Shown here in pieces: positions 1-46,655 of a stretch of 64,000 bases of DNA. The DNA lies in NCBI GenBank assembly GCA_963835575.1, contig CAWIGG010000002.1, positions 1 through 64,000 on the forward strand, written 5' to 3'. Each line of letters starts with the position of its first letter. Positions within the stretch are counted from its first letter, which is position 1. The notes under the pieces were generated by a model. It was not told where the DNA came from. It saw only the letters and a list, made by a program, of their open reading frames with translations, and ran no database searches. Source of the stretch: an uncultured Spirochaetota bacterium (GTDB lineage: Bacteria; Spirochaetota; Brevinematia; Brevinematales; JAOACQ01). Both the position numbers and the translations under genes were made by a program.

Positions 1-470
1 GGTTCAAGCCGAAACCGATGAAATACCGGGAACACGATTTTGAAAAAAATGAAGCTGATAATACTTATATATGACCGAATGGAAAAATATTAAGCTATAA
101 GGGATACCAGAGGCAATTGAGTAATTTCGGCCATAAATATCAGGCCAGGCAGGCGGATTGTTCAAAATGCGGAAAAAGGGGACAATGCTTAAAACATCCC
201 GATAAGACAAGGCAAAGAACATTATATCTGGTAGTCAAAAGAGGGGATAAAAACTATTCAAAAGAAATGGTAAATAAAATTGATCTGCCGGAAATCAGGG
301 ATTTGTACAGCCGGAGGATGGGAATAATTGAGCCGGTATTCGGTAACATCCGTTCTTGTAAAGGTATGGACCGTTTTACGCTCAGGGGTAAGAGTAAGGT
401 TAATATCCAGTGGCTTTTGTTCTGTATAGTGCATAATATTGGTAAAATCCAGATATTTGGTAAGATTTAA
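1..470 (+). pseudogene. IS1182 transposase C-terminal part with in-frame stop
   Basis: Same C-terminus as 42361-43860, but TGA at 72-74 where the other copy has TGC. Could be an error near a contig end. Confidence 0.6.
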
Positions 471-604
471 GGGGGTGTTCATAGCCATAATACCGGCTTG
501 AAATTGGAAAAATGGCAAATCCGGATAGAGAAATGAAAAATGATACTCTATCCGGCTTTCAGAAGACAGTTTTTATTCTCGTTTTTGGCTTTTTCGACAG
601 GGTC
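1..604 (+). mobile_element. IS1182-family element, 3' part (runs off window start)
   Basis: Near-identical to 43391-43994. Ends CTTTTTCGACAGGGTC immediately before GTTGTAC (605-611). Confidence 0.9.
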
Positions 605-2254: not shown

Positions 2255-2272
2255 CTTTTACCTCCAAGATGG

Positions 2273-3611
2273 CGGTCCGACTTCAAGACATAGGTTACAC
2301 TTTAGCTTCAGGACATCGGTAACCCTTTTTGAGTACAAAATGCCCTTGAATTACTATTTCAGTATAGACCTAAATATAAAAGTATTCAAGTCCATACTAC
2401 CTATCAGATTATTTTCAAACCACACATCCATAAAAGCTTTGCTTTTACTTTTTAAACCAATATGATAACCATCCAACGCATTTGTAATAAATACACGCCG
2501 ACCTTTATAATAAATGTAACCTCTGTTATTAACCTTTCTGCTGATGTATCCCTTGGGATATACAACCCAATCGGCTATCCCATCATAACTCCTAACCGAT
2601 TTTATATAGACCATTGCTGGTGTTTTCATTCCAAGGCTTTCATGCGGTCTTTCCTCGTTGAACTCTTTTCTCCATTCGTTGAATACTGCCTGGTGCAGCT
2701 TCAGGCTACCGCTGATTTTGTTTTCCAGTTCCTTTTTCATATCCAGGTGCATCCTTTCATGTGCTCCGTTCTGATAGGGAGAGCCGGGATCAATTCTGTC
2801 CAGCTTTATGCCCAGAGACAACCACCATGCTGATAGTCTGGTTAAACCAAGTAAACCCTGTGTACTGGCAAACGGCGGCCCATTATCGGATTTTATCATA
2901 CTCGGTAATCCATATTGCTTGAAGAGTCTGTCAAATTCAAATTTGACGGAACTAATATCACCTTTTTGCAGTATGGCTATGGATAAAATATATTTGGAAT
3001 AATCATCACGTACTGTAAGTGGTTCGCATCTTTCCTGCTCGGAGGTATACCACCAGCCTTTGAAATCCACTGTCCAGATATCATTTGGTTTTTTCGGTGC
3101 TACCCTGTTCTGTATTCTTTCCGGATGTATGTGTCGTCTTCTTTTCCTTAATTCTACAAATCCGGCCTTTTTCAATATCCTTTCGACAGTGCTTAATGAA
3201 GGAATTTTATTATCCGGGTGGTTCCTGACATAAACCGACCTGATTTTCTTAGGTCCCCAATTCTGCTTCGTTTGCTTGATACGGATGATCTCGCAGATTA
3301 TTTCTTCAGAAAGTTGATTAGGGCTTGAAAGCGGTTTCCTAGATTTTTCTTGAAGACCGGACAACCCTTCTTCATAAAACCTTTCTTTCCACTTATAACC
3401 GGTTTTTGTGCTGATCCCATATTCAGTACAAAGCTCGGTAAAGTTCACACCTTTTTGGAATGACTTTTCAATAAAAGCTAATTTCAGCTTCATGATATTA
3501 ACCTCCTTCCAGGGCATTGTCAGCCTCCTTAATGAGATCTGACCTAATTATACCTGGAAAGTGTTACCTATGTCCTGAAGCTTTTCCGTTACCTATGTCC
3601 TGATTTCACCA
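2273..3611 (-). mobile_element. IS481-family element
   Basis: Repeated subterminal TCA(A/G)GACATAGGT(T/A)AC motifs inverted at both ends. Exact ends are approximate; removing 2273-3611 restores the cassette-end inverted repeat. Confidence 0.8.
2354..3517 (-). CDS. IS481-family transposase
   Basis: MPWKE start, HTH, WTVDFKG, SDNGPPF, NGAHERMH (rve DDE core). Confidence 0.9.
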   Translation of the reverse strand: MPWKEVNIMKLKLAFIEKSFQKGVNFTELCTEYGISTKTGYKWKERFYEEGLSGLQEKSRKPLSSPNQLSEEIICEIIRIKQTKQNWGPKKIRSVYVRNHPDNKIPSLSTVERILKKAGFVELRKRRRHIHPERIQNRVAPKKPNDIWTVDFKGWWYTSEQERCEPLTVRDDYSKYILSIAILQKGDISSVKFEFDRLFKQYGLPSMIKSDNGPPFASTQGLLGLTRLSAWWLSLGIKLDRIDPGSPYQNGAHERMHLDMKKELENKISGSLKLHQAVFNEWRKEFNEERPHESLGMKTPAMVYIKSVRSYDGIADWVVYPKGYISRKVNNRGYIYYKGRRVFITNALDGYHIGLKSKSKAFMDVWFENNLIGSMDLNTFIFRSILK

Positions 3612-3621
3612 GCAAAATGGC

Positions 3622-3781
3622 GCCTAACGGTGCGGCTATACGACGTTTTGCGTCCCGTAGGGTTGGCGCGGCTTTTGCATCCCACGCAGCAAAAGACGTG
3701 ACAAAGCAAAATGTGTCCGCAGGACCGAGGAGCGCCCGGAGCCGCGCGAGGACGGAGCGGAACGTGTACGCCTTGTTGTAC
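3622..3781 (-). repeat. attC-like site (160 bp)
   Basis: GCCTAAC...GTTGTAC; very similar to 17730-17888. Confidence 0.85.
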
Positions 3782-4216: not shown

Positions 4217-6920
<2,704 letters not shown>

Positions 6921-7455: not shown

Positions 7456-7619
7456 GTACAACGGTACAGACAGACGACGTTTTGCGGCCCGTCAGGGTTG
7501 GCGCATTTTTTGCTTCCCCGTGCAAAAAATGTGACAAAGCAAAATGTGGCGCAGCCTGAGCACCGCAGCCCGTAGCTTCAGCGGAGGGCGAGGAGCGCAA
7601 CGTCTGTCTGTTGTTGGGC
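7456..7619 (-). repeat. attC-like site (164 bp)
   Basis: GTACAAC-GGT-ACAGACAGACG ... CGTCTGTCTGT-T-GTTGGGC. Confidence 0.85.
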
Positions 7620-8598: not shown

Positions 8599-8695
8599 GC
8601 AGTTGCACAAACTGTTTTATTATATTTCTTTCTTTTCTATAATTTCTTTGTATTTTAATTCTTCATTATCAGTTGTAATTTTAATATTTGCTTCA

Positions 8696-10091
8696 GAGTT
8701 ATAATAGAAAGTTGTGTATAGGAATAAATATTATAAAAAAGATGGCGTACCCTCTATAATTTATTTACGACAATAAACAAAAGGAGGAATACGCCATATG
8801 CCGAAGCACAACGAAGATTTTAAGCTCTTACAGGCTTTTAATCAAGATGAAACAGTAGAATTTTTATGTCTTGAAGAATTGGCAAGGATCGGGGCCAGGG
8901 AAATAATCAAGAAGGCTCTGGAAGATGAAATTAATGGGTTTCTTCAGGAGAGAGAGCATTTAACTATCGAAGACGGGAGAAAGGCAATAGTAAGAAATGG
9001 GTATCATAAAGCCCGTCAGATTCTCATTGGTGGAGGGGCTATTGATGTATGTATTCCGAGAACAAGGAACCGACTCGGAGGCGACAATTTTCAAAGCCTA
9101 ATAGTACCGCCGTATATGAGAAAAAGCCTGAGAATTGAGGAAGCCATTCCATTGTTGTATCTCTATGGAGTCTCAGAGATGGATATGGAGAATGCCTTGA
9201 GAGGATTGCTTGGTGAAGAAGCGAAAGGATTATCAGCCTCAAGTATAAGCAGAATGAAACAAGGATGGGGTAAAGAATATGATGAGTGGCGGACATCCGA
9301 TTTAAGCGATAAAAAGTATTGCTATATATGGGTTGACGGCATTTACTTCAATGTACAGGGCAGCGAAGACCGTTTATGCACTCTTGTAATGATCGGAGCC
9401 AATGAGAATGGTGAAAAGGAGATTATTCTTGTTGAAGAAGGTTACAGAGAGAATTCCGAGACTTGGTTAGGGATATTAAGAAACCTAAAAGAAAAAGGTT
9501 TGAAAGGTCCTATTCTTTTTATCGGAGACGGAAGCCTTGGATTCTGGAAAGCAGCCAAAGAAGTATATCCTGAATCCAGATGGCAGAGATGCTGGGTTCA
9601 TAAGATAAAGAACATTCTAAACAAGCTGCCCAAAGTATTACAGTCAAAGGCAAAAGAGATGCTTCATGAGATATGCAATGCTCCTGATAAGGATAATGCT
9701 ATCAAAGCTTTTGAATTATTCCAGGCGGTTTTTAATCCTAAATATCCAGCAGCTGTCGAATGTTTAGAAAAGGATTGGGAGCTTATGATCGAATTTTATA
9801 ACTGTCCGGCGGAACATTGGGTACATATCCGTACGACAAACGTAATAGAATCTACCTTCTCTACAGTTCGATTAAGAACTAAAAAGATGAGAGGCTGCGG
9901 AACCAGGGAAACGATTCTAATAATGGTCTATAAATTACTGGATAAGGCATCCAGGCGATGGAGAAAATTAAGAGGTTATGAAAAGATTTGCCTTGTATTG
10001 GAAGGCGCTGTTTTTGAGAACGGAGAGCTTGTAAAAAAGGCAGCATAAAAAAATGAGAGGGTATGTCATACACAACATTTGACAAAAACTC
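8696..10091 (+). mobile_element. IS256-family element
   Basis: IRs GAGTT...GTTGTGTAT; 9-bp TSD TTTGCTTCA at 8687-8695 and 10092-10100. Confidence 0.93.
8798..10048 (+). CDS. IS256-family transposase
   Basis: RNGY, WVDGIY, IGDGSLGFW, QRCWVHK, IRTTNVIES. Confidence 0.95.
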   Translation: MPKHNEDFKLLQAFNQDETVEFLCLEELARIGAREIIKKALEDEINGFLQEREHLTIEDGRKAIVRNGYHKARQILIGGGAIDVCIPRTRNRLGGDNFQSLIVPPYMRKSLRIEEAIPLLYLYGVSEMDMENALRGLLGEEAKGLSASSISRMKQGWGKEYDEWRTSDLSDKKYCYIWVDGIYFNVQGSEDRLCTLVMIGANENGEKEIILVEEGYRENSETWLGILRNLKEKGLKGPILFIGDGSLGFWKAAKEVYPESRWQRCWVHKIKNILNKLPKVLQSKAKEMLHEICNAPDKDNAIKAFELFQAVFNPKYPAAVECLEKDWELMIEFYNCPAEHWVHIRTTNVIESTFSTVRLRTKKMRGCGTRETILIMVYKLLDKASRRWRKLRGYEKICLVLEGAVFENGELVKKAA

Positions 10092-10724
10092 TTTGCTTCA
10101 ATTAAGTTTTCATTAACTATATTACCAATTAAATTAAATTGGAATAGTGATTCCTTTTTATAAATATTTATTTTTTTGTCTGTTATTAATATTTCATCAG
10201 AGTAATATTTTGTGTAATGAAGTTTATTTGAATTTATATCGATTATAAATGAAGATCTGTTACTAAGCATTGAATCTTTATTTGTTATTTTTGAAAGATC
10301 ATCTGAGATGTTTAAAAGTATAGAGTTACCTTTCCAGCCTATTCTTTTTACTTTGTTGGCTTCATTTGAAATTCTATCATCTATTTGTTTTTTCTCAACT
10401 CTTTTTAAGAATTTATTAAGTAAAATAGAACAACTTATGATAGCGATAACAATGCTGGCAAGTGATACAAGAATATTTATCAGATTAGACTTAAAATATT
10501 CAATTTCTACAAATTGTCTAATTATTAAAAAAATAATGAACTGTGATATAAAAACTGATAAAAAATAAGTTAATAAGAATTTTAATGCCCAACTCCACCC
10601 TTTCATGTTATTCTCTTTTGCTTTGTTGTAAAACCAAATAGAAATAACAGCTAATGCTACTACTACAATAATAATTCCCATAATTACCTCTTAAATTTAT
10701 TACAAAAATTGTTTGTGCAATTGC

Positions 10725-10922: not shown

Positions 10923-11099
10923 TTAAGCTTCCATTAAATTACATATTTCTTTTATTAGTACATCCAATTTAATATTTGAAATATTTTTATTATAAGGATT
11001 ATTTTTACCATTTTTTGTCTCATTATATAATTTAATTATGTCTTTTTTTGTCCATTTTTTCATTAAAAAACCTGGAGCAATCATATTAGTACCATTATT
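10923..11099 (-). pseudogene. 3' remnant of a cassette gene truncated by IS21
   Basis: Open frame from the IS21 end to a stop just before the attC. Confidence 0.55.
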
Positions 11100-11281
11100 T
11101 GGAAAATCCGGACGAAACATGCCGGGGTTCCGGGTGAAACATGCCACCCAATCCGTGTGAAACATGCCGGGTAATCCGGATGAAATGTTACCACCTACCA
11201 TAAGAAAAAGCGAATCAAACACGAAGAATTCCTCCGAGAATGTTAAGCTAATCCTTCTTGAAAAAATAAGAAGGAGTTGGT

Positions 11282-12838
11282 ATGCCGAACAGGAGGAAGC
11301 CTATGAAGAAAATCCGGGAAGTGATCCGGATGATCAAAGAAAACGGCCTGAGCTGCCGTGTGACATCAAAGGCCCTGGATATTTCCAGGCCAACCGTGCA
11401 AAGATATATATCCAGGTTTGAAAAAAGCGGCCTAACCATCGCGGAAATTTATGAAATGAGCGATTCTGCTTTAATTGAAATTTTCGAATCGATGGCAGAA
11501 GGTGACAGTCAGGAAGAAACCGAAAAGGATAATCTGTACAATGAATTCCCCGAATACAGTAAGGAACTACTGCGTACAGGCGTCAATCTGAGATTGCTTT
11601 GGGAAGAATACCTGAGAAAATATCCAGGAGGCTATCGCTATTCTCAATTCTGCTATCACTACGGCATCTGGAAAGGTTCTCTTGAAATATCCATGCACCA
11701 GGAATACAAGGCCGGAGACAAGCTTTTTGTTGATTTTACCGGCGCGAAATTTCCGATTGTAGACCGTTCCACAGGAGAAGTTATAGAGAAAGAGGTATTC
11801 GTAGCCATTCTTGGAGCAAGCCAGTATACATATGTGGAAGCGACGGATAGCCAGAAGAAAGAAGACTTAATCAGGGCTATCGAGAACGCGTTGTATTACT
11901 TCGGAGGATCACCAAGAGCCATAATACCCGATTGTTTAAAAAGCGCTGTAACGTTGGGCAATAAATATGAACCTGCAATTAATTCTGAATTTCAGAATTT
12001 TTGCAGACATTATTCTATGTGTCCCCTCCCTGCAAGACCATATAAACCGCGAGATAAAGCACACGTTGAAAACGCCGTAAAAATCACCTACAGCTGGATA
12101 TTTGCCGTTCTCAGGAATAGAGTTTTTTATACTCTGGGAGAATTGAATATTGCTATACGGGAACAATTGGGAATCTATAATTCAAAGAAGATGCAGAAGC
12201 TCAAAGTCAGCAGGCGGGAATTTTTCGAGGAAACAGAACGGAAAGAGTTAAAACCGCTTCCGAAGGAAAGATACAGTTTTAAAAGCTTCTCAAAAGCTAA
12301 GATCCAATTCAACTATCATGTCTGTCTCAAAGAAGATTCTCATTACTACAGCGTTCCATATCGATATAGAGGCAAAATGGCAGATATTGTTACTTCCGAT
12401 CGGACAGTGGAAATATTTGTTGATAATATCCGCATTGCAGCCTATCCACGGGACCGTAGAAAGCAAGTTTATACAACCACACATGAACATATGCCGCCCC
12501 ATCACAGGTGGGTCGGAGACTGGAATCCGGAGAAGTTAACACATTGGGGTAAGTCGCTTGGTCCGGATGTTGAAGAAATGATAAAGAGAGTCCTGCAAAG
12601 CAGGGATTATCCAGAACAGGCATATAAGGTCTGTCTGGGCATCTTAAGCCTGGCCAAAAAACTCGGAAAAGAAAGGCTCGATAAAGCCTGTAAACGGGCG
12701 CTTGATTTTCAGTATTATTCATATCAGGGAATAAAGCGGATTCTGGAGAAAGGCCTGGATAATTTTGAGGAAGAATCGGTACTGTTTCCGGCCGTTAAGA
12801 TGCATGAAAATATCCGCGGAAGAGAATATTTTGAATAG
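11282..12838 (+). CDS. istA: IS21 transposase IstA
   Basis: LFVDFTG, IIPDCLKSAV, PRDKAHVE, YYSVPY. Confidence 0.93.
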   Translation: MPNRRKPMKKIREVIRMIKENGLSCRVTSKALDISRPTVQRYISRFEKSGLTIAEIYEMSDSALIEIFESMAEGDSQEETEKDNLYNEFPEYSKELLRTGVNLRLLWEEYLRKYPGGYRYSQFCYHYGIWKGSLEISMHQEYKAGDKLFVDFTGAKFPIVDRSTGEVIEKEVFVAILGASQYTYVEATDSQKKEDLIRAIENALYYFGGSPRAIIPDCLKSAVTLGNKYEPAINSEFQNFCRHYSMCPLPARPYKPRDKAHVENAVKITYSWIFAVLRNRVFYTLGELNIAIREQLGIYNSKKMQKLKVSRREFFEETERKELKPLPKERYSFKSFSKAKIQFNYHVCLKEDSHYYSVPYRYRGKMADIVTSDRTVEIFVDNIRIAAYPRDRRKQVYTTTHEHMPPHHRWVGDWNPEKLTHWGKSLGPDVEEMIKRVLQSRDYPEQAYKVCLGILSLAKKLGKERLDKACKRALDFQYYSYQGIKRILEKGLDNFEEESVLFPAVKMHENIRGREYFE

Positions 12839-12850
12839 GAGGAACTGAAT

Positions 12851-13594
12851 ATGACCAATGAAGCAACTATTGAAAAAATGCAGAAGATGAAACTGCATGG
12901 GATGTCCAGGGCGTTTGAGGATATCATTGCCGGTAAAACGCCTGACGGCCTGACTGCCGATGAAACAATTGCGCATCTTGTGGATTCGGAATGGGACGAA
13001 AGGTATAATCGGAAACTGTCATCTTTAATCAAAAGAGGGCGTTTCAGATATCAGGCTGGTCTGGAGAATCTTTCTTACCGTGCGGATAGAGAACTGGATA
13101 AAAATCTGATATTGAGGCTTTCGAATTGTGATTGGATACGAAAGAAAGAAAATATGATTATTACAGGCGCTACCGGCAGCGGGAAAAGCTATCTTGCATC
13201 AGCTTTCGGTAATCAGGCTTGCCGGCAGGGCTACAGGACCCTTTATTTCAACTGTTTGAAGATTTTTACCCGGTTAAAATTCGCAAAAGCGGAAGGTAGT
13301 TACTCAAAAGAAATGAATTTTATCCAGAAGCAGGATTTATTGATACTGGATGATTTTGGTCTTGAAATTCTTGATACACCCTCAAGATTGTCTCTTCTGG
13401 AAATGCTTGAGGACCGGCATGGTAAAAACTCTACTTTGATAACTTCTCAGCTGCCGGTAAAAGATTGGTTTGAAAAAATCGGTGATCCTACGATAGCTGA
13501 CGCAATCTGTGACAGGATAAATCATTCTGCTATTAAAATCGAATTGAAGGGGGTTGATTCTATGCGTAAAATTTATGCTAAAGATTCTGGATGA
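12851..13594 (+). CDS. istB: IS21 helper ATPase IstB
   Basis: GATGSGKS, LLILDDFG, TSQLP, ADAICDR. Confidence 0.95.
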   Translation: MTNEATIEKMQKMKLHGMSRAFEDIIAGKTPDGLTADETIAHLVDSEWDERYNRKLSSLIKRGRFRYQAGLENLSYRADRELDKNLILRLSNCDWIRKKENMIITGATGSGKSYLASAFGNQACRQGYRTLYFNCLKIFTRLKFAKAEGSYSKEMNFIQKQDLLILDDFGLEILDTPSRLSLLEMLEDRHGKNSTLITSQLPVKDWFEKIGDPTIADAICDRINHSAIKIELKGVDSMRKIYAKDSG

Positions 13595-13691
13595 AACATG
13601 CCACCTGCCTTAAAATGTTTTGGGAATTTTAGTGTTTTGAAAAGTGGTAACATTTCGCCCGGAACCCCGGCACATTTCACCGGAATACGCA

Positions 13692-14560
13692 AAACTGTTG
13701 TTATCTGAAATAACGGAAGAATATAATATATATAAAGGAGGACAATCATCATAAAGTTTTAACCAATTATTAAATAATTGTTTAATATTTTGTTCAATAG
13801 AATAAAAATAAACAAAATAAAAAGTTTCAAATTTATAATAAGAACTGGATTCATTTTGTTTATTTCTATTATGAAGAAATACAATTTCATGCGGATATTT
13901 TTCATTATTTATAAAACCTGATAAAATATTTCTATTAATTTCTTTCCTTATAAAAAACTGAAAAAAAATTGAAGTCATATTAATGTACGAATCAAGTTGA
14001 TTTAATGTAATTCCTTCTTTTGCTTTAAAAACTATAAATGCTTTTTCTGTAATTTTAAATTCATAATACATCTGGATAATTAAGGGATAATACAATTTAA
14101 AAAGAATAAATATATGCATTTTAACATTATCTAAAATATCAATATTCTGTCTTTTATTATATTTTATTGTTATGTCAGTTTCATTTTCATCTTGGCTAAA
14201 TTTATTATTTTGTAATGTTAACCAATGATATAAATTATCACTTCTTATATATAATTCATTAAATAGGATATTTTCATCTTCAAGATGAGCGCCTAAATAA
14301 CCTTGATAACATTGATAAGTAACTGTTTCATATCCACTGTTTGAAAAAGTATTTTTAATTCTATAGCAATTGAATAAAGTAATTTTATCCCCATTATTTA
14401 AAAGACCATGTATTATTTTGAAATTAAAATCTTTGATAAAAGGTTGAAATCTGCCATTTAAATGAAGATTTAGGTTATCTGAAACTTCTAACTCTCCAGA
14501 AATTGTATTTTCAATGTTTTCAATAATCCACCACTTACCTAAATAAATTTCTTCTTCCAA
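13692..14560 (-). pseudogene. ApeA-N-terminal-domain-like protein truncated by IS21 (HEPN part missing)
   Basis: GKWW...ISGEL...IIHG...G.KITLFNC N-terminal pattern; frame runs into the IS end. Confidence 0.55.
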
Positions 14561-19707: not shown

Positions 19708-19753
19708 AAGTTTACCTCCCATTATAAAAAACATTTTACAAGCATCCACTTCC

Positions 19754-19956
19754 TCTCTCAAAGTTCCGGCTCCGACTCTAAAAGAATCCAATTACTCTCT
19801 TTTAGACCCGGTTTGGATTCTCAAAGAGTCTAATTACTCTCTCAAAGAGTCCAATTGGTTTCTAAAAGACCCGGCTTCGACTCTAAAAGAGTCTAATTGC
19901 TCTCTCAAAGAATCTAATTTGTTTCTTTAAGAATCGGACTGGTTTCTAAAAGAATC
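19754..19956. repeat. Degenerate 21-bp tandem repeat, about 10 units
   Basis: Units such as TCTCTCAAAGAGTCCAATTGG and ACTCTAAAAGAGTCTAATTGC at 21-bp period. Confidence 0.85.
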
Positions 19957-19974
19957 AAAAAGCCATTTCGGATA

Positions 19975-42118: not shown

Positions 42119-42276
42119 GTACAACGGTGCGCGTAGAAGAAGTTTGGCGGCCCGTCAGGGTTGGCGTCTTTTTTGCATCCCACGCGCAAAAAAGATGACA
42201 AAGCCAAATTTGCCGCAGGCCGAGCACCGCCCGGAGCCGCGCGAGGACGGAGCGGAGCTTCTACGCGTTGTTGAGT
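42119..42276 (-). repeat. attC-like site with IS1182 inserted at its GTT end
   Basis: GTACAAC-GGT-GCGCGTAGAAG ... CTTCTACGCGT-T-GTT|GAGT. Confidence 0.85.
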
Positions 42277-43994
42277 CTGTCGAAAAAGTGATATTTAATG
42301 TAAATTATTATCGATATAGCTTAAAATAATGAATGAAATAAATCAATAGCGGAAGGTTATATGGCAAGATACAAGACAGTTAATTATGAGCAGATGGAAA
42401 TGATACCGCTCAATTTTTCAGATCAGCTGATCGAAGGAACATATGAACACACACTCAATTTCCTAATCGAGGAAAAGGCTGACCTTTCCTGTTTTGATAT
42501 AAATTATAAAAATGATAAAACAGGCTCGAAAGCGATTTCTCCGGCAATTCTTCTGAAAATAATCCTTTTTGCCTATTCGAAAGGTATTACTACATCACGC
42601 AGGATTGAGGAAGCTTGCCGGGTGAATGTCATCTTCAAAGCCCTGTCCGGGAATACCGTTCCAGACCATTCCACTATAGCCGCTTTTGTTACCGGTATGA
42701 AAGACCGGATTAAAATAGTATTTCAGTTTGTGCTGATGGTCTGTTCTTCTGCGGGATTGATCGGCGGGGACATGTTCGCCGTTGACGGCTGTAAATTGCC
42801 TTCAAACGCTTCTAAAGAATGGAGCGGTACATTCAAAGACCTGAAAAAGAAACAGGAAAAGTTTGAAAAGCTGGCGGCATTTCTACTGGAAAAACACGCG
42901 CAAGCTGACTGCTCCGGCGAAAATGAAAAGTCTAAAGCGCTTCAAAAAAGATCGGAAAAAATACGGAAGAAAGCGGAGAAAATCGATGCCTTTCTCAAAT
43001 CCCAGAATCCCAAATACGGCAAGCGGGGACGTGAAAACCAATCGAATATTACCGATAACGAAAGCGCGAAAATCAAGAGTTCCCACGGTGTGATACAAGG
43101 TTATAATGGACTTGCGGTAGTGGATTCAAAGCATCAGGTGATTACCGCGGCGGAAGCTTTTGGTTTAGGCCAGGAAGGGGAAGTATTGAAGCCGATGGTT
43201 GAAATAACGGAGGAAAATTTAAGCGTGATAAAAGGAGAAACAAATCCGCTGGAAGGAAAAACAATACTGGGGGACACGAATTATTTCAGCGAAGAAAATC
43301 TAAAATATCTGGCGGAAGAAAAGAAGATGGAAGCTGTGATACCGGACAATCAATTTCGAGGGAGGGATGAACGGTTTACCGATCGGGGAAGGTTCAAGCC
43401 GAAACCGATGAAATACCGGGAACACGATTTTGAAAAAAATGAAGCTGATAATACTTATATATGCCCGAATGGAAAAATATTAAGCTATAAGGGATACCAG
43501 AGGCAATTGAGTAATTTCGGCCATAAATATCAGGCCAGGCAGGCGGATTGTTCAAAATGCGGGAAAAGGGGACAATGCTTAAAACATCCCGATAAGACAA
43601 GGCAAAGAACATTATATCTGGTGGACAAAAGAGGGGATAAAAACTATTCAAAAGAAATGGTAAATAAAATTGATCTGCCGGAAATCAGGGATTTGTACAG
43701 CCGGAGGATGGGAATAATTGAGCCGGTATTCGGTAACATCCGTTCTTGTAAAGGTATGGACCGTTTTACGCTCAGGGGTAAGAGTAAGGTTAATATCCAG
43801 TGGCTTTTGTTCTGTATAGTGCATAATATTGGTAAAATCCAGATATTTGGTAAGATTTAAGGGGGTGTTCATAGCCATAATACCGGCTTGAAATTGGAAA
43901 AATGGAAAATCCGGATAGAGAAATGAAAAATGATACTCTATCCGGCTTTCAGAAGACAGTTTTTATTCTCGTTTTTGGCTTTTTCGACAGGGTC
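42273..43994 (+). mobile_element. IS1182-family element, complete
   Basis: IRs GAGTCTGTCGAAAAAG / CTTTTTCGACAGGGTC; GTT on both flanks. Confidence 0.9.
42361..43860 (+). CDS. IS1182-family transposase
   Basis: LLKIILFAYSKGI.TSR.IE, PDHSTIA, AVDGCK, QGYN, YICP.GK, IEPVFG.I. Confidence 0.92.
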   Translation: MARYKTVNYEQMEMIPLNFSDQLIEGTYEHTLNFLIEEKADLSCFDINYKNDKTGSKAISPAILLKIILFAYSKGITTSRRIEEACRVNVIFKALSGNTVPDHSTIAAFVTGMKDRIKIVFQFVLMVCSSAGLIGGDMFAVDGCKLPSNASKEWSGTFKDLKKKQEKFEKLAAFLLEKHAQADCSGENEKSKALQKRSEKIRKKAEKIDAFLKSQNPKYGKRGRENQSNITDNESAKIKSSHGVIQGYNGLAVVDSKHQVITAAEAFGLGQEGEVLKPMVEITEENLSVIKGETNPLEGKTILGDTNYFSEENLKYLAEEKKMEAVIPDNQFRGRDERFTDRGRFKPKPMKYREHDFEKNEADNTYICPNGKILSYKGYQRQLSNFGHKYQARQADCSKCGKRGQCLKHPDKTRQRTLYLVDKRGDKNYSKEMVNKIDLPEIRDLYSRRMGIIEPVFGNIRSCKGMDRFTLRGKSKVNIQWLLFCIVHNIGKIQIFGKI

Positions 43995-44013
43995 GTTATA
44001 TGCCGTTGCCCAA

Positions 44014-45054
44014 TCATTCTTTTAACCCGCTTTCTGTAATTTTTAATATTACCGATTTAACAATGTCCAAGAATACAGATATTTCTTTTTCAGAATATGA
44101 CTTACTAATTACCCACTTTAGATTTGATTGAGCATTAACAAAATAACCTGTCTTTACAAGATTCTCTTTATAGTAATCTATAATAATTTCAGGATTATTG
44201 ATTTTCTTTTGAATTTCTTCAAAACCGGAATAAATACTTTGTTTAAAAACTGATTTTGGAGGATAACCAAATAATAATGCGATTTTTTTATCACTTATAT
44301 TTAGATTTAAAGAATATCCTTTTGAACCCCAAATAAACATTAAGGTATTGACTTTTGCAAACTCGATAATTTTATTGAAAACCAATTTTCCATTTTCATC
44401 TAAAGATTCTAAAAAGTCTTTCTGATTTACTTTTGGTAATGAAGCAGATTGAACATTTTGTTTTTTATATTCTTCATCGCCTATTATCATATCTGAAGAA
44501 ACGACTTTTTCTCCATTTTTTGATTCAAAATATTTAAATTCTAAACAATTAATATCAATTCCTTTTTGTCTTAAGAAAACAGCAGTTTGTTTAATTTCTT
44601 TGCTAATTTCCTGAGCGATAATTAGTAAACGCATATTTTTATTAAATGATACTTGTTGATCCGGTTCTTGAATAAAATATTGATTGTGATAATCTTCTAA
44701 ATTTGATTCTTCTCCATAATATTCTTTAAATATTTCATTTAATTGCTCATAATTCAAATTTTCAATAAATGATGCATATTCAAGTATTTGTGCGATGGTT
44801 TCTCTGGGTGTTTTATCTCTTTTTAGTTCAATGACAACAACATTGCCAATTTTATCTATTCCCAATAAGTCAATATAAGCATTGAAATTAGTTGATACCT
44901 GTCTTCCAATAATTAATATTTTTGTATTTTCAAAGAAATAATCCGGATTCTTTTCCAGTAAAATTTCTAAATCTTTTTCTATATTATTAATTTTGAAATT
45001 TTGTTCTTTGTAAGGAGTGAAATTTCCTTCATTGTTTATTGTAAATAATTTCAT
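44014..45054 (-). CDS. NucS/DUF91-like PD-(D/E)xK endonuclease, cassette gene
   Basis: EKDLE, IGRQ, IDLLGID..G.VVVIELKR, AQILEYA. Confidence 0.75.
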   Translation of the reverse strand: MKLFTINNEGNFTPYKEQNFKINNIEKDLEILLEKNPDYFFENTKILIIGRQVSTNFNAYIDLLGIDKIGNVVVIELKRDKTPRETIAQILEYASFIENLNYEQLNEIFKEYYGEESNLEDYHNQYFIQEPDQQVSFNKNMRLLIIAQEISKEIKQTAVFLRQKGIDINCLEFKYFESKNGEKVVSSDMIIGDEEYKKQNVQSASLPKVNQKDFLESLDENGKLVFNKIIEFAKVNTLMFIWGSKGYSLNLNISDKKIALLFGYPPKSVFKQSIYSGFEEIQKKINNPEIIIDYYKENLVKTGYFVNAQSNLKWVISKSYSEKEISVFLDIVKSVILKITESGLKE

Positions 45055-45086
45055 TTGTTTCCTCCAAAAGCTGATTGGGCAATGGC

Positions 45087-45272
45087 ATATAACGGCACAG
45101 ACAAGCCGACGTTTTTTCGGCTTAGAGCCAGGCTTGCCGCTCTTAGCCGAAAAAATGTGGTGAACTTTTTGTCCTTCTCCTCCGGCCTACTTCTCAAAAA
45201 GTGAACCTGAGGAACGGAACCCGGAGCGACTGAGCGTAGGGTGAGTACCGGAACGTTTGTCTGTTGTTAGCT
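45087..45272 (-). repeat. attC-like site (186 bp)
   Basis: ATATAAC-GGC-ACAGACAA ... TTGTCTGT-T-GTTAGCT. Confidence 0.85.
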
Positions 45273-46024: not shown

Positions 46025-46200
46025 AGCTAACGGTGGCGGACAAACGACGTTTGCAAGCCTTAGAGCCAGGCTTGCCGCTCTTAGGCTTGCAAATGTGGTG
46101 AACCTTTTGTCTTTCTCCTCCGTCCTACCCAACAAAAGGTGAACCCGAGGAGCGCAGGCGTCGCAACGCCGAGCACCGCAGCGTTTGTCCGCTGTTGGGC
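46025..46200 (-). repeat. attC-like site (176 bp)
   Basis: AGCTAAC-GGTG-GCGGACAAACG ... CGTTTGTCCGC-T-GTTGGGC. Confidence 0.85.
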
Positions 46201-46588
46201 GATGGCGGCCAATTCTCTGAATGAATAAGATTTTCCGCAGGCAATTATTTCGCTGAATTTCTCAGTCTTTCTATAAATATCATTACTTGACAACGGCACT
46301 TATTTTCTTACATATGCCTGCGACCATAACCCTTCTCTTTATTCATTATAATCAAAAATGCCCATAATAATTTTATCAAACAGCCTTTATTTTTTCAAAT
46401 AAGAATTCTTAAAAAATAATATTTTCAAGTAAAAAAAACAACATAAAAATAATTTTATTTCTATTATAACTAATTTATAAGCCAAATATCTAAATTATCT
46501 CTTACAACCTGAACTACGCAGAGAAATATCCGTCCTTCCCGGGCATTTTTGAATGTTTATTATACAGCATTGGCCGCTTTCGCCCAAC
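46194..46588 (-). other. First cassette, ORF-less, with candidate promoter
   Basis: Bounded by GTTGGGCGAnnGCGGCCAAT inverted repeats; no credible ORF; TTGGGC-17-TATAAT at 46587-46559. Confidence 0.7.
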
Positions 46589-46655
46589 TCTATATAAAAG
46601 AATTTCGTTTTTTATGAAAATAATTACTACGATTTATTGTATAAAATACGAAATT
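46582..46655 (-). promoter_or_regulatory. attI-like site
   Basis: Cassette end GCCCAAC is followed by AT-rich non-attC sequence 95 bp from the integrase stop. Confidence 0.7.

Follow-up and report, generated by a model that had tools for sequence, protein, structure and literature searches.

An IS1182-family insertion sequence at the attC triplets of integron-like cassette arrays in an uncultured spirochaete

The analysed window comprises the first 64,000 nucleotides (forward strand) of contig CAWIGG010000002.1 from an uncultured bacterium of the Spirochaetota (Brevinematales, JAOACQ01; assembly GCA_963835575.1). The assembly of this genome, labelled G000, amounts to 4.39 Mb in seven contigs (C1 to C7), and the window forms the beginning of C2. 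From position 1 to about 46,600 it is occupied by a cassette array, in which AT-rich genes lie between GC-rich imperfect palindromes of 150–180 nt that resemble the attC sites of integrons. One cassette carries a complete insertion sequence (IS) of the IS1182 family, here called IS-A, with a GTT triplet on either side, one of them at the foot of an attC-like hairpin. Copies of IS-A and of its relatives recur at this triplet in a manner that points to attC as a specific target of their transposases.

The IS-loaded cassette and its insertion sequence

The features of the IS-loaded cassette, together with a partial IS-A copy at the contig start, are given below. The cassette boundaries are inferred from the unit structure of other cassettes. 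The ends of IS-A were fixed by comparison between copies and by terminus homology with IS-B and IS-C, two further IS1182-family elements of the same genome.

1..604, plus strand: 3' part of a second IS-A copy (blastn), truncated by the start of the contig, with GTTGTAC next to it at 605-611
42119..42272, minus strand: attC-like hairpin of the IS-loaded cassette, with crossover box GTTGTAC (minus strand, 42119-42125), then 10-bp L stems and a variable centre
42125..45092, minus strand: IS-loaded cassette in its entirety, with a crossover box as each boundary, 2968 bp, 1725 bp of which are the IS and one GTT
42270..42272, plus strand: left GTT copy, which with the IS start gives GTTGAGT (ACTCAAC on the cassette strand)
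42273..43994, plus strand: IS-A, complete IS1182-family insertion sequence, 1722 bp (blastn copies)
42273..42288, plus strand: left terminal inverted repeat GAGTCTGTCGAAAAAG, agreeing with the right repeat at 14 of 16 positions
42361..43860, plus strand: transposase gene, 499 aa, the single open reading frame (ORF) of IS-A, antisense to the cassette genes (NF033551; PF13751, PF05598, PF01609)
43979..43994, plus strand: right terminal inverted repeat, reverse complement GACCCTGTCGAAAAAG (end comparison)
43995..43997, plus strand: right GTT copy, which on the minus strand supplies the AAC of ATATAAC, the original R'' box of the cassette
43995..44016, plus strand: extended inverted repeat of the cassette end, moved 1.7 kb from the hairpin; 21 of 22 nt match the reverse complement of 45072-45093
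44014..45054, minus strand: cassette gene, 346 aa, with a weak NucS-like match

The junctions read ...CGCGTT GTT/GAGTCTGTCGAAAAAG...CTTTTTCGACAGGGTC/GTT ATATGCC, where the slashes mark the ends of the element. As is usual for IS1182 elements, the 16-nt ends form terminal inverted repeats (14/16 identical), and their core, CTGT(C/A)GAAAAA, is found in all IS-A relatives. The transposase scores 277.4 bits against the NF033551 model "IS1182 family transposase" (cut-off 270) and combines an N-terminal DUF772 domain (PF05598, 1.8e-14) with a C-terminal DDE_Tnp_1_6 domain (PF13751, 5.7e-23). The models that match it are exclusively of the IS1182 and IS5-type DDE kinds, and it is not a DEDD enzyme of the IS110/IS1111 type. 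By blastn, G000 harbours six complete copies, five of them identical and the sixth with two differences, in addition to partial ones at the ends of contigs. The identity of five copies and their intact ORF suggest that IS-A is active.

Junctions and target specificity

A sequence-only reading of the window had noticed that both IS copies stop directly before a GTT (at 605 and 43995) and that the complete copy has a GTT on each side; both observations hold, the latter at 42270-42272 and 43995-43997. GTT/GTT flanks are present at all six complete copies in G000. The wider junction pool consists of every distinct junction of IS-A, of its 81% and 57% variants, and of the 54–57% relatives in two sister-genus genomes (G006 and G009). 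Every distinct junction in this pool has the triplet directly at the element: the flank ends in GTT at 19 of 19 on the left, and it starts with GTT at 20 of 20 on the right.

Eight of the ten distinct left junctions in G000 lie in attC-like hairpins, at the same position, on the same arm and in the same orientation. The left flanks represent the GC-rich inner arm of such hairpins (...TAGCCGCT-GTT), with a T before the GTT in 17 of 19 cases, and none of those located in attC sites carries the CC that marks the crossover box. The right flanks read GTTRKRCG..G and correspond to the cassette-side box. This association with the attC GTT is far above chance: array regions make up 2.9% of the genome, and of its 120,727 GTTs (both strands) 3,923 are in arrays and 97% outside them. 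The proposal of a DDE element specialised for attC hairpins, the copies of which should not be scattered over other or variable positions, is thus supported by the NF033551 match and the junction counts, by which the IS shows specificity for the attC triplet in both site and orientation. Weak independent support for the junctions comes from three other sediment-metagenome runs, in whose contigs loose ends continue into attC-arm letters ahead of 42269 and into GTACGAAG past 43997.

The most plausible reading of the flanking GTT is a target duplication of 3 bp. In IS-B, IS-C and the metagenome relatives, the element starts 4 nt before CTGT(C/A)G; by this common start IS-A begins at GAGT, and the GTT would therefore be target DNA. 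Metagenome relatives at 41–46% identity duplicate TGA or CCA instead, and the length of the target duplication varies within the IS1182 family. Since the sequence beyond the right end still matches the other end of the cassette at 21 of 22 nt, the event was a simple insertion in which no target sequence was lost. The IS had been said to displace the extended inverted repeat of the cassette, and it does so in the sense that the 22-nt repeat is intact but now 1.7 kb away from its hairpin.

The cassette strand and the occupied box

On the plus strand, the palindromes of the array follow the pattern RYYYAAC-GG(T)-stem ... stem-(T)-GTTRRRY. Seven sites of the window combine AAC...GTT with stems of at least 8 nt; they are 150–178 nt long and bounded as attC sites are. 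Their L stems are perfect over 10 bp, and the sole asymmetry seen is a spacer that is 2–3 nt longer on the crossover side; an extra base is present in the attC sites of the relatives in genome G174 (see below). In the hairpin beside IS-A (42119..42272) the arms pair, and its identity to other attC-like sites in the array is 83–88%.

That the cassettes are read on the window's minus strand follows from the array genes, which lie on it, and from the recombinase gene, which in three of three arrays is found on one and the same side, on the minus strand, and points its 3' end at the cassettes. A tyrosine recombinase with its 3' end towards the array is the layout reported for Treponema integrons (the available text of PMC3607928; PMC4889954). 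The same strand follows from an ORF-less cassette in C7 that always keeps its left hairpin, while the partner beyond ...CGCTTAAC/ varies and is either another hairpin type or an attI-like sequence. Cassette boundaries occur at one box only, the one beside the GG spacer: the C7 units break at this AAC, and so does a 99.3% duplicate of 46029-46613, the break of which falls exactly at AAC 46029-46031, so that crossover is assigned to this box.

Two other arrangements were considered and rejected. The plus strand as cassette strand is ruled out by gene orientation, recombinase position and unit structure. A "mirror-image attC", in which the 2–3 extra bases at the crossover box would be misplaced extrahelical bases, is discarded because the G174 sites that have a canonical extra base share the long spacer and because the plus (bottom) strand folds better, as expected (-38.7 versus -34.2 kcal/mol for the top strand of the empty site).

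IS-A occupies the non-crossover box R'', 16 nt past the stop codon of the cassette gene on the cassette strand. Its place is therefore within the cassette 45092-42125, with the NucS-like gene on one side and the hairpin belonging to that gene on the other, and the earlier statement that it rides inside the cassette is correct as regards its position. The statement that it targets the attC GTT stands, with the qualification that the box used is R'' and not the crossover core.

Beyond the array lie two features of the integron-like platform.

46594..46613, minus strand: putative attI junction, plus strand GCCCAAC TCTATATAAA
46684..47745, minus strand: array-adjacent tyrosine recombinase of 353 aa, with transcription directed at the cassettes

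The closest solved structure to the array-adjacent recombinases is VchIntIA (2A3V, 3.6e-43), relative to which they have 27 aa where IntI4 has 69 and thus do without the IntI-specific insert. Against TIGR02249, the window enzyme reaches 213.7 bits (cut-off 265) and is without the IntI domain; profile positions of about 181-234 are unmatched in every array-adjacent paralogue, their scores are also below the XerA cut-off, and no sequence in G000 passes the TIGR02249 cut-off. By these comparisons the platform is integron-like, with an integrase that does without the defining domain. The paralogues are encoded at C6:427165-428184, C7:4743-5762 and C1:10029-11015. A sequence similar to the attI junction, AACTCT(T)TATATA, occurs beside the paralogous recombinase gene of C7, and again at C2:2028328 in the 99.3% duplicate.

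This duplicate, a copy of the first cassette with the attI-like junction (46029-46613), is situated at the far end of C2 (C2:2028328-2028912), where unrelated DNA takes the place of the recombinase gene. Several arrays have, in tandem beside their attI-like junction, an ORF-less cassette of about 590 bp that consists of a hairpin and about 420 bp of AT-rich DNA (C7:1975-4636, C6:424444-425648, C2:2031346-2034265), and the first cassette of the window (46031-46600) has the same build. It may be a carrier of promoters or regulatory RNA.

The regenerated core site and the fate of the cassette

The GTT and the IS start GAGT together form GTTGAGT, a perfect GTTRRRY (ACTCAAC, or RYYYAAC, on the cassette strand), as the sequence-only reading had pointed out. 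GTTRRRY also arises with GAGC in G006 and G009 and with GAAT in the variants. The regeneration of a consensus site is thus real at IS-A; as a special adaptation it does not stand, because it follows from a GAG terminus that is family-wide and common to relatives not using attC, and it fails in two attC-using lineages, as GTTCTGG in G174 and as GTTGAGG in G331 and G379. The regenerated core looks like a by-product of the family termini and not like design. The core match may nevertheless make the insertion harmless. Carrying the IS-derived box, the hairpin is predicted to form the same stems and to be no less stable than the reconstructed empty site (-40.8 versus -38.7 kcal/mol).

Further-reaching is the idea that the modified attC would still be recombinogenic, that the recombinase would move IS-loaded cassettes, and that IS-A and its miniature derivative would use cassettes as vehicles, the IS terminus doubling as R''. 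This is rather unlikely; an IS-plus-cassette unit duplicated elsewhere was not found in G000 at an identity of at least 93%. In its boldest form, the idea would have the recombinase, IntI-like without the integrase-defining domain, bind the R box and guide the transposase to the triplet.

Relatives and breadth of the habit

Relatives of the transposase were sought in 401 Spirochaetota genomes, where ten genomes gave matches at E 1e-80 or better. A single-protein scan of genome contigs detected no IS-A relative, and an alignment-based scan of genome contigs detected only the two sister-genus genomes. Relatives that use the attC triplet, at 44–52% identity, come from other Spirochaetota families and from metagenomes. 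G174 has three copies with ends CTGG...CTAC and GTT/GTT flanks at attC arms, where the gene-proximal box is again the one used. The elements of G331 (three copies) and G379 end in GAGG...CCTC and also have GTT/GTT flanks; they sit at the crossover box, as judged by gene orientation and bulges. The element at metagenome locus L039 occupies the crossover GTT of an attC of the classical type, about 70 nt long, and the neighbouring genes end in an R'' box. The flanks in G351, G175 and G309 read AAC, which corresponds to the opposite orientation. Loci L041 and L042 (AAC/AAC) and L043 (GAC/GAC) are likewise reversed, and in L042 and L043 the hairpin body is on the right-end side. As far as these junctions indicate, attC-triplet targeting is a property of an entire IS1182 subfamily, with orientation and box fixed within lineages and not across them.

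In the tree, GTT/AAC users are distributed over several well-supported clades that are interleaved with clades using other targets; this tree is quick, effectively unrooted and open in its backbone, and supports no count of origins. Within G000, the habit extends to a 57% variant with GTT/GTT flanks in an attC site (C3:1652-3368) and to a 107-bp miniature inverted-repeat derivative (C2:2045113-2045219, minus strand). The latter has IS-A-type ends (GAATCTGTAGAAAAAG ... CTTTTTCTACAGTCTC) and GTT/GTT flanks inside an attC-like site, and the same locus is found at the start of C5. In G006, five related IS copies that share an internal TAA stop (C5:475039-481337 and C10:76146-82498) sit in different attC-like sites of consecutive cassettes, which suggests a defective element that spread with help from elsewhere.

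Two more distant elements of G000 help to define the ends and the target. IS-B, the transposase of which is 27% identical, has symmetrical ends GAGTCTGTCGCAAAAG with the same GAGTCTGTCG termini as IS-A.

IS-B copies in G000: C5:344049-345726, C3:5074-6751, C4:971941-973616, C5:2065-3742, C5:160684-162360, C6:417245-421528 and C7:1-1678

Five of these seven copies adjoin an attC-type GTT, and one copy is reversed. With its near-identical termini and its use of the same attC box IS-B resembles IS-A, but its ends are perfectly symmetrical and it duplicates 4 bp 5' of the GTT instead of the GTT itself: its flanks are variable 4-bp repeats (CGCT, CCGT, ACGT) directly 5' of the same attC GTT. One IS-B copy is interrupted by an IS21-type element. 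IS-C (30% identical, ends TTGCCTGTCGG; 24 copies tabulated, e.g. C2:373467-375141) duplicates 4 bp, often GCTG, and its insertions are frequently in the loops of small terminator-like hairpins.

A model of target choice and its alternatives

Very probably, the IS1182 DDE transposase itself selects and duplicates the GTT/AAC triplet at the attC foot, mainly by sequence in a hairpin context. In this model, the transposase would pick the conserved triplet at the foot of the integron attC hairpin and cut on either side of it with a 3-bp stagger, so that the GTT is duplicated. Recognition would be mainly by sequence (T-GTT-RKRCG..G), with the hairpin context helping. The left end of the IS-A lineage would always face the hairpin, and the box used would be R''; the single orientation can be attributed to the unlike ends of the element (GAGT versus GACC) and the unlike sides of the target. 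As a result, the IS would become an internal passenger of the cassette, the hairpin of which would keep an R''-like box made of AAC and the IS terminus.

A general liking of IS1182 elements for palindromes or hairpins, without any specialisation, would give a similar picture if attC sites were simply the commonest strong hairpins here. Such behaviour is described, in the available text of the reports, for IS1272/TnSha1, which target hairpins with little sequence preference (PMC5678879, PMC4923244), and the frequent insertion of IS-C into the loops of small hairpins and the palindromes at loci L044 and L053 are in line with it. It is nonetheless improbable, as IS-A is always located on one exact triplet of one arm, in a fixed orientation and with a probable duplication, whereas the same text reports for IS1272 the deletion of stem-loops without duplication and in both orientations. 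Moreover, the one clearly non-hairpin IS-A site resembles the box in sequence (GTTAGCGG), and the extended motif TGTTRKRCGNNG is rare in G000 (23 sites, 14 of them in arrays). The pattern could also reflect survival, with insertion at many GTTs and the persistence of only those copies that are harmless in attC sites. One IS-A copy does lie inside a gene, and arrays evidently tolerate insertions, as IS256, IS21 and IS481-like elements are present there too. Survival alone, however, cannot yield the same nucleotide, arm and orientation at eight of ten sites, repeated in other genomes, and many of the 97% of GTTs outside arrays are necessarily neutral, which leaves this explanation with very little probability.

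Least credible, and to be given hardly any weight, is placement by the integron recombinase, which would recombine a circular IS with a GGTC-GTT-GAGT junction into the attC triplet like a cassette. GTT is indeed the crossover triplet of integrons, the IS junction would hold a GTTRRRY-like word, and the elements of G331, G379 and L039 are at the crossover box. Against this, the box used in G000 is the non-crossover one, insertions also occur outside arrays, the duplications made by relatives with these termini are TGA, CCA or 4-bp words, and IS-A has ordinary IS1182 inverted repeats with an intact DDE transposase. We therefore infer that the transposase rather than the recombinase chooses the site.

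Several observations weigh against target choice by the transposase as outlined above. Two of the ten distinct G000 sites are not attC sites: one copy there breaks a 343-aa lipoprotein-like ORF, and the other adjoins a 290-bp remnant of a related IS end. A closing hairpin with an exact 7-nt stem was detected for only six of nine left flanks in G006 and G009, a count that is a lower bound given the insensitivity of the exact-stem detector; a generic end motif matched many random places. The relatives at L044, L045, L048 and L053 use other targets. Orientation and box vary by lineage, with the crossover box used in G331, G379 and L039 and the orientation reversed in G175, G309, G351 and L041 to L043, and therefore no single rule covers the subfamily. 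Because the tree backbone is unresolved, the habit may have had one or several origins. Finally, no empty site was recovered from the array or from the contigs of four metagenome runs, and the 3-bp duplication thus rests on homology; none of these contigs joins across the IS, so that they show no circle junction either and speak for neither side.

Other elements and genes of the array

G000 is very IS-rich, and its contigs break at IS. An IS481-like element of 1345 bp with a 387-aa ORF (NF033577, 215 bits, just under the cut-off of 224) is located at window positions 2270-3613, with further copies at C6:414407-415751, C6:167500-168893, C2:1246726-1248070 and C2:2040423-2041728. All five copies have the same orientation, with the right end outside an attC-like site at a distance of 16–18 nt from its crossover box (AAC), which makes this a second family with an attC-linked position. 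The array also contains an IS256-family element (about 35 genomic copies; 8683-10098) and an IS21-family element with an IstB helper (eight copies; 11094-13693).

Inside the array stands a full-length katG-type catalase-peroxidase gene (4217-6418, minus strand; 733 aa, about 54% G+C), with attC-like sites on either side (about 3626-3780 and 7460-7615). A repeat scan found degenerate 21-nt tandem repeats (CTCTMAAAGARTCYAATT-like) at 19734-19964.

Significance and comparison with known systems

The attC site is the currency of integrons, and the elements that hunt it shape the storage, expression and movement of cassettes. IS-A-type elements are a major force in the arrays studied here, as they occupy about a seventh of the target arms detected in G000 (5 of 35 arm matches, one of them a duplicate locus; a rough figure, since several known sites escape the nhmmer arm models). 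Contigs break at them, as arrays probably do, and they may ride in cassettes. The exact-triplet habit occurs in several lineages, in several spirochaete families and in metagenomes, and offers a tractable system for studying the recognition of a recombination hairpin by a DDE enzyme. The literature search, which did not include ISfinder and TnPedia, gave no report in which IS1182-type elements target attC. The IS-A subfamily is a new family of attC-hunting IS, and attC is a new target for IS1182.

Some likeness exists to the IS1202 family of the ISAjo2 type in Acinetobacter, DDE elements that hunt pdif/dif sites (PMC10132070). According to the available text of that report, they share with IS-A a single orientation and a fixed distance from a tyrosine recombinase site, and make a short duplication as IS-A probably does, but they have a TnsB-like transposase, a XerC/XerD dif-like target 5 bp away, a 5-bp duplication and no hairpin.

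IS1272/TnSha1 of staphylococci belong to the same transposase family as IS-A and likewise target hairpins or palindromes, for which the consulted portions of the reports describe no sequence preference, no duplication, the deletion of part or all of the stem-loop, and insertion in both orientations (PMC5678879, PMC4923244). IS-A differs in that an exact triplet appears to be duplicated, nothing is deleted (21/22 nt kept), the hairpin stays intact and one orientation is used.

Closest in habit is the IS1111-attC group of the IS1111/IS110 elements (ISKpn4, ISPst6), which, as far as the sections of the reports at hand extend, insert at a fixed position at one attC end (PMC11187229, PMC3971601), possess DEDD transposases and subterminal repeats, and find their target by a seeker RNA (PMC11187229). 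Like IS-A, they are found at one specific end of cassette attC sites; unlike them, IS-A has a DDE transposase of the IS1182 type, terminal inverted repeats and a probable 3-bp duplication. The group IIC-attC introns are also mobile elements specialised on cassette attC sites, as stated in the portion of PMC3001079 available, but they are retroelements that insert by reverse splicing and not DNA transposons. The attC hunters known so far are thus the IS1111-type elements, with their RNA-guided DEDD enzymes, and the group II introns, to which a DDE insertion sequence would add a third, mechanistically different solution.

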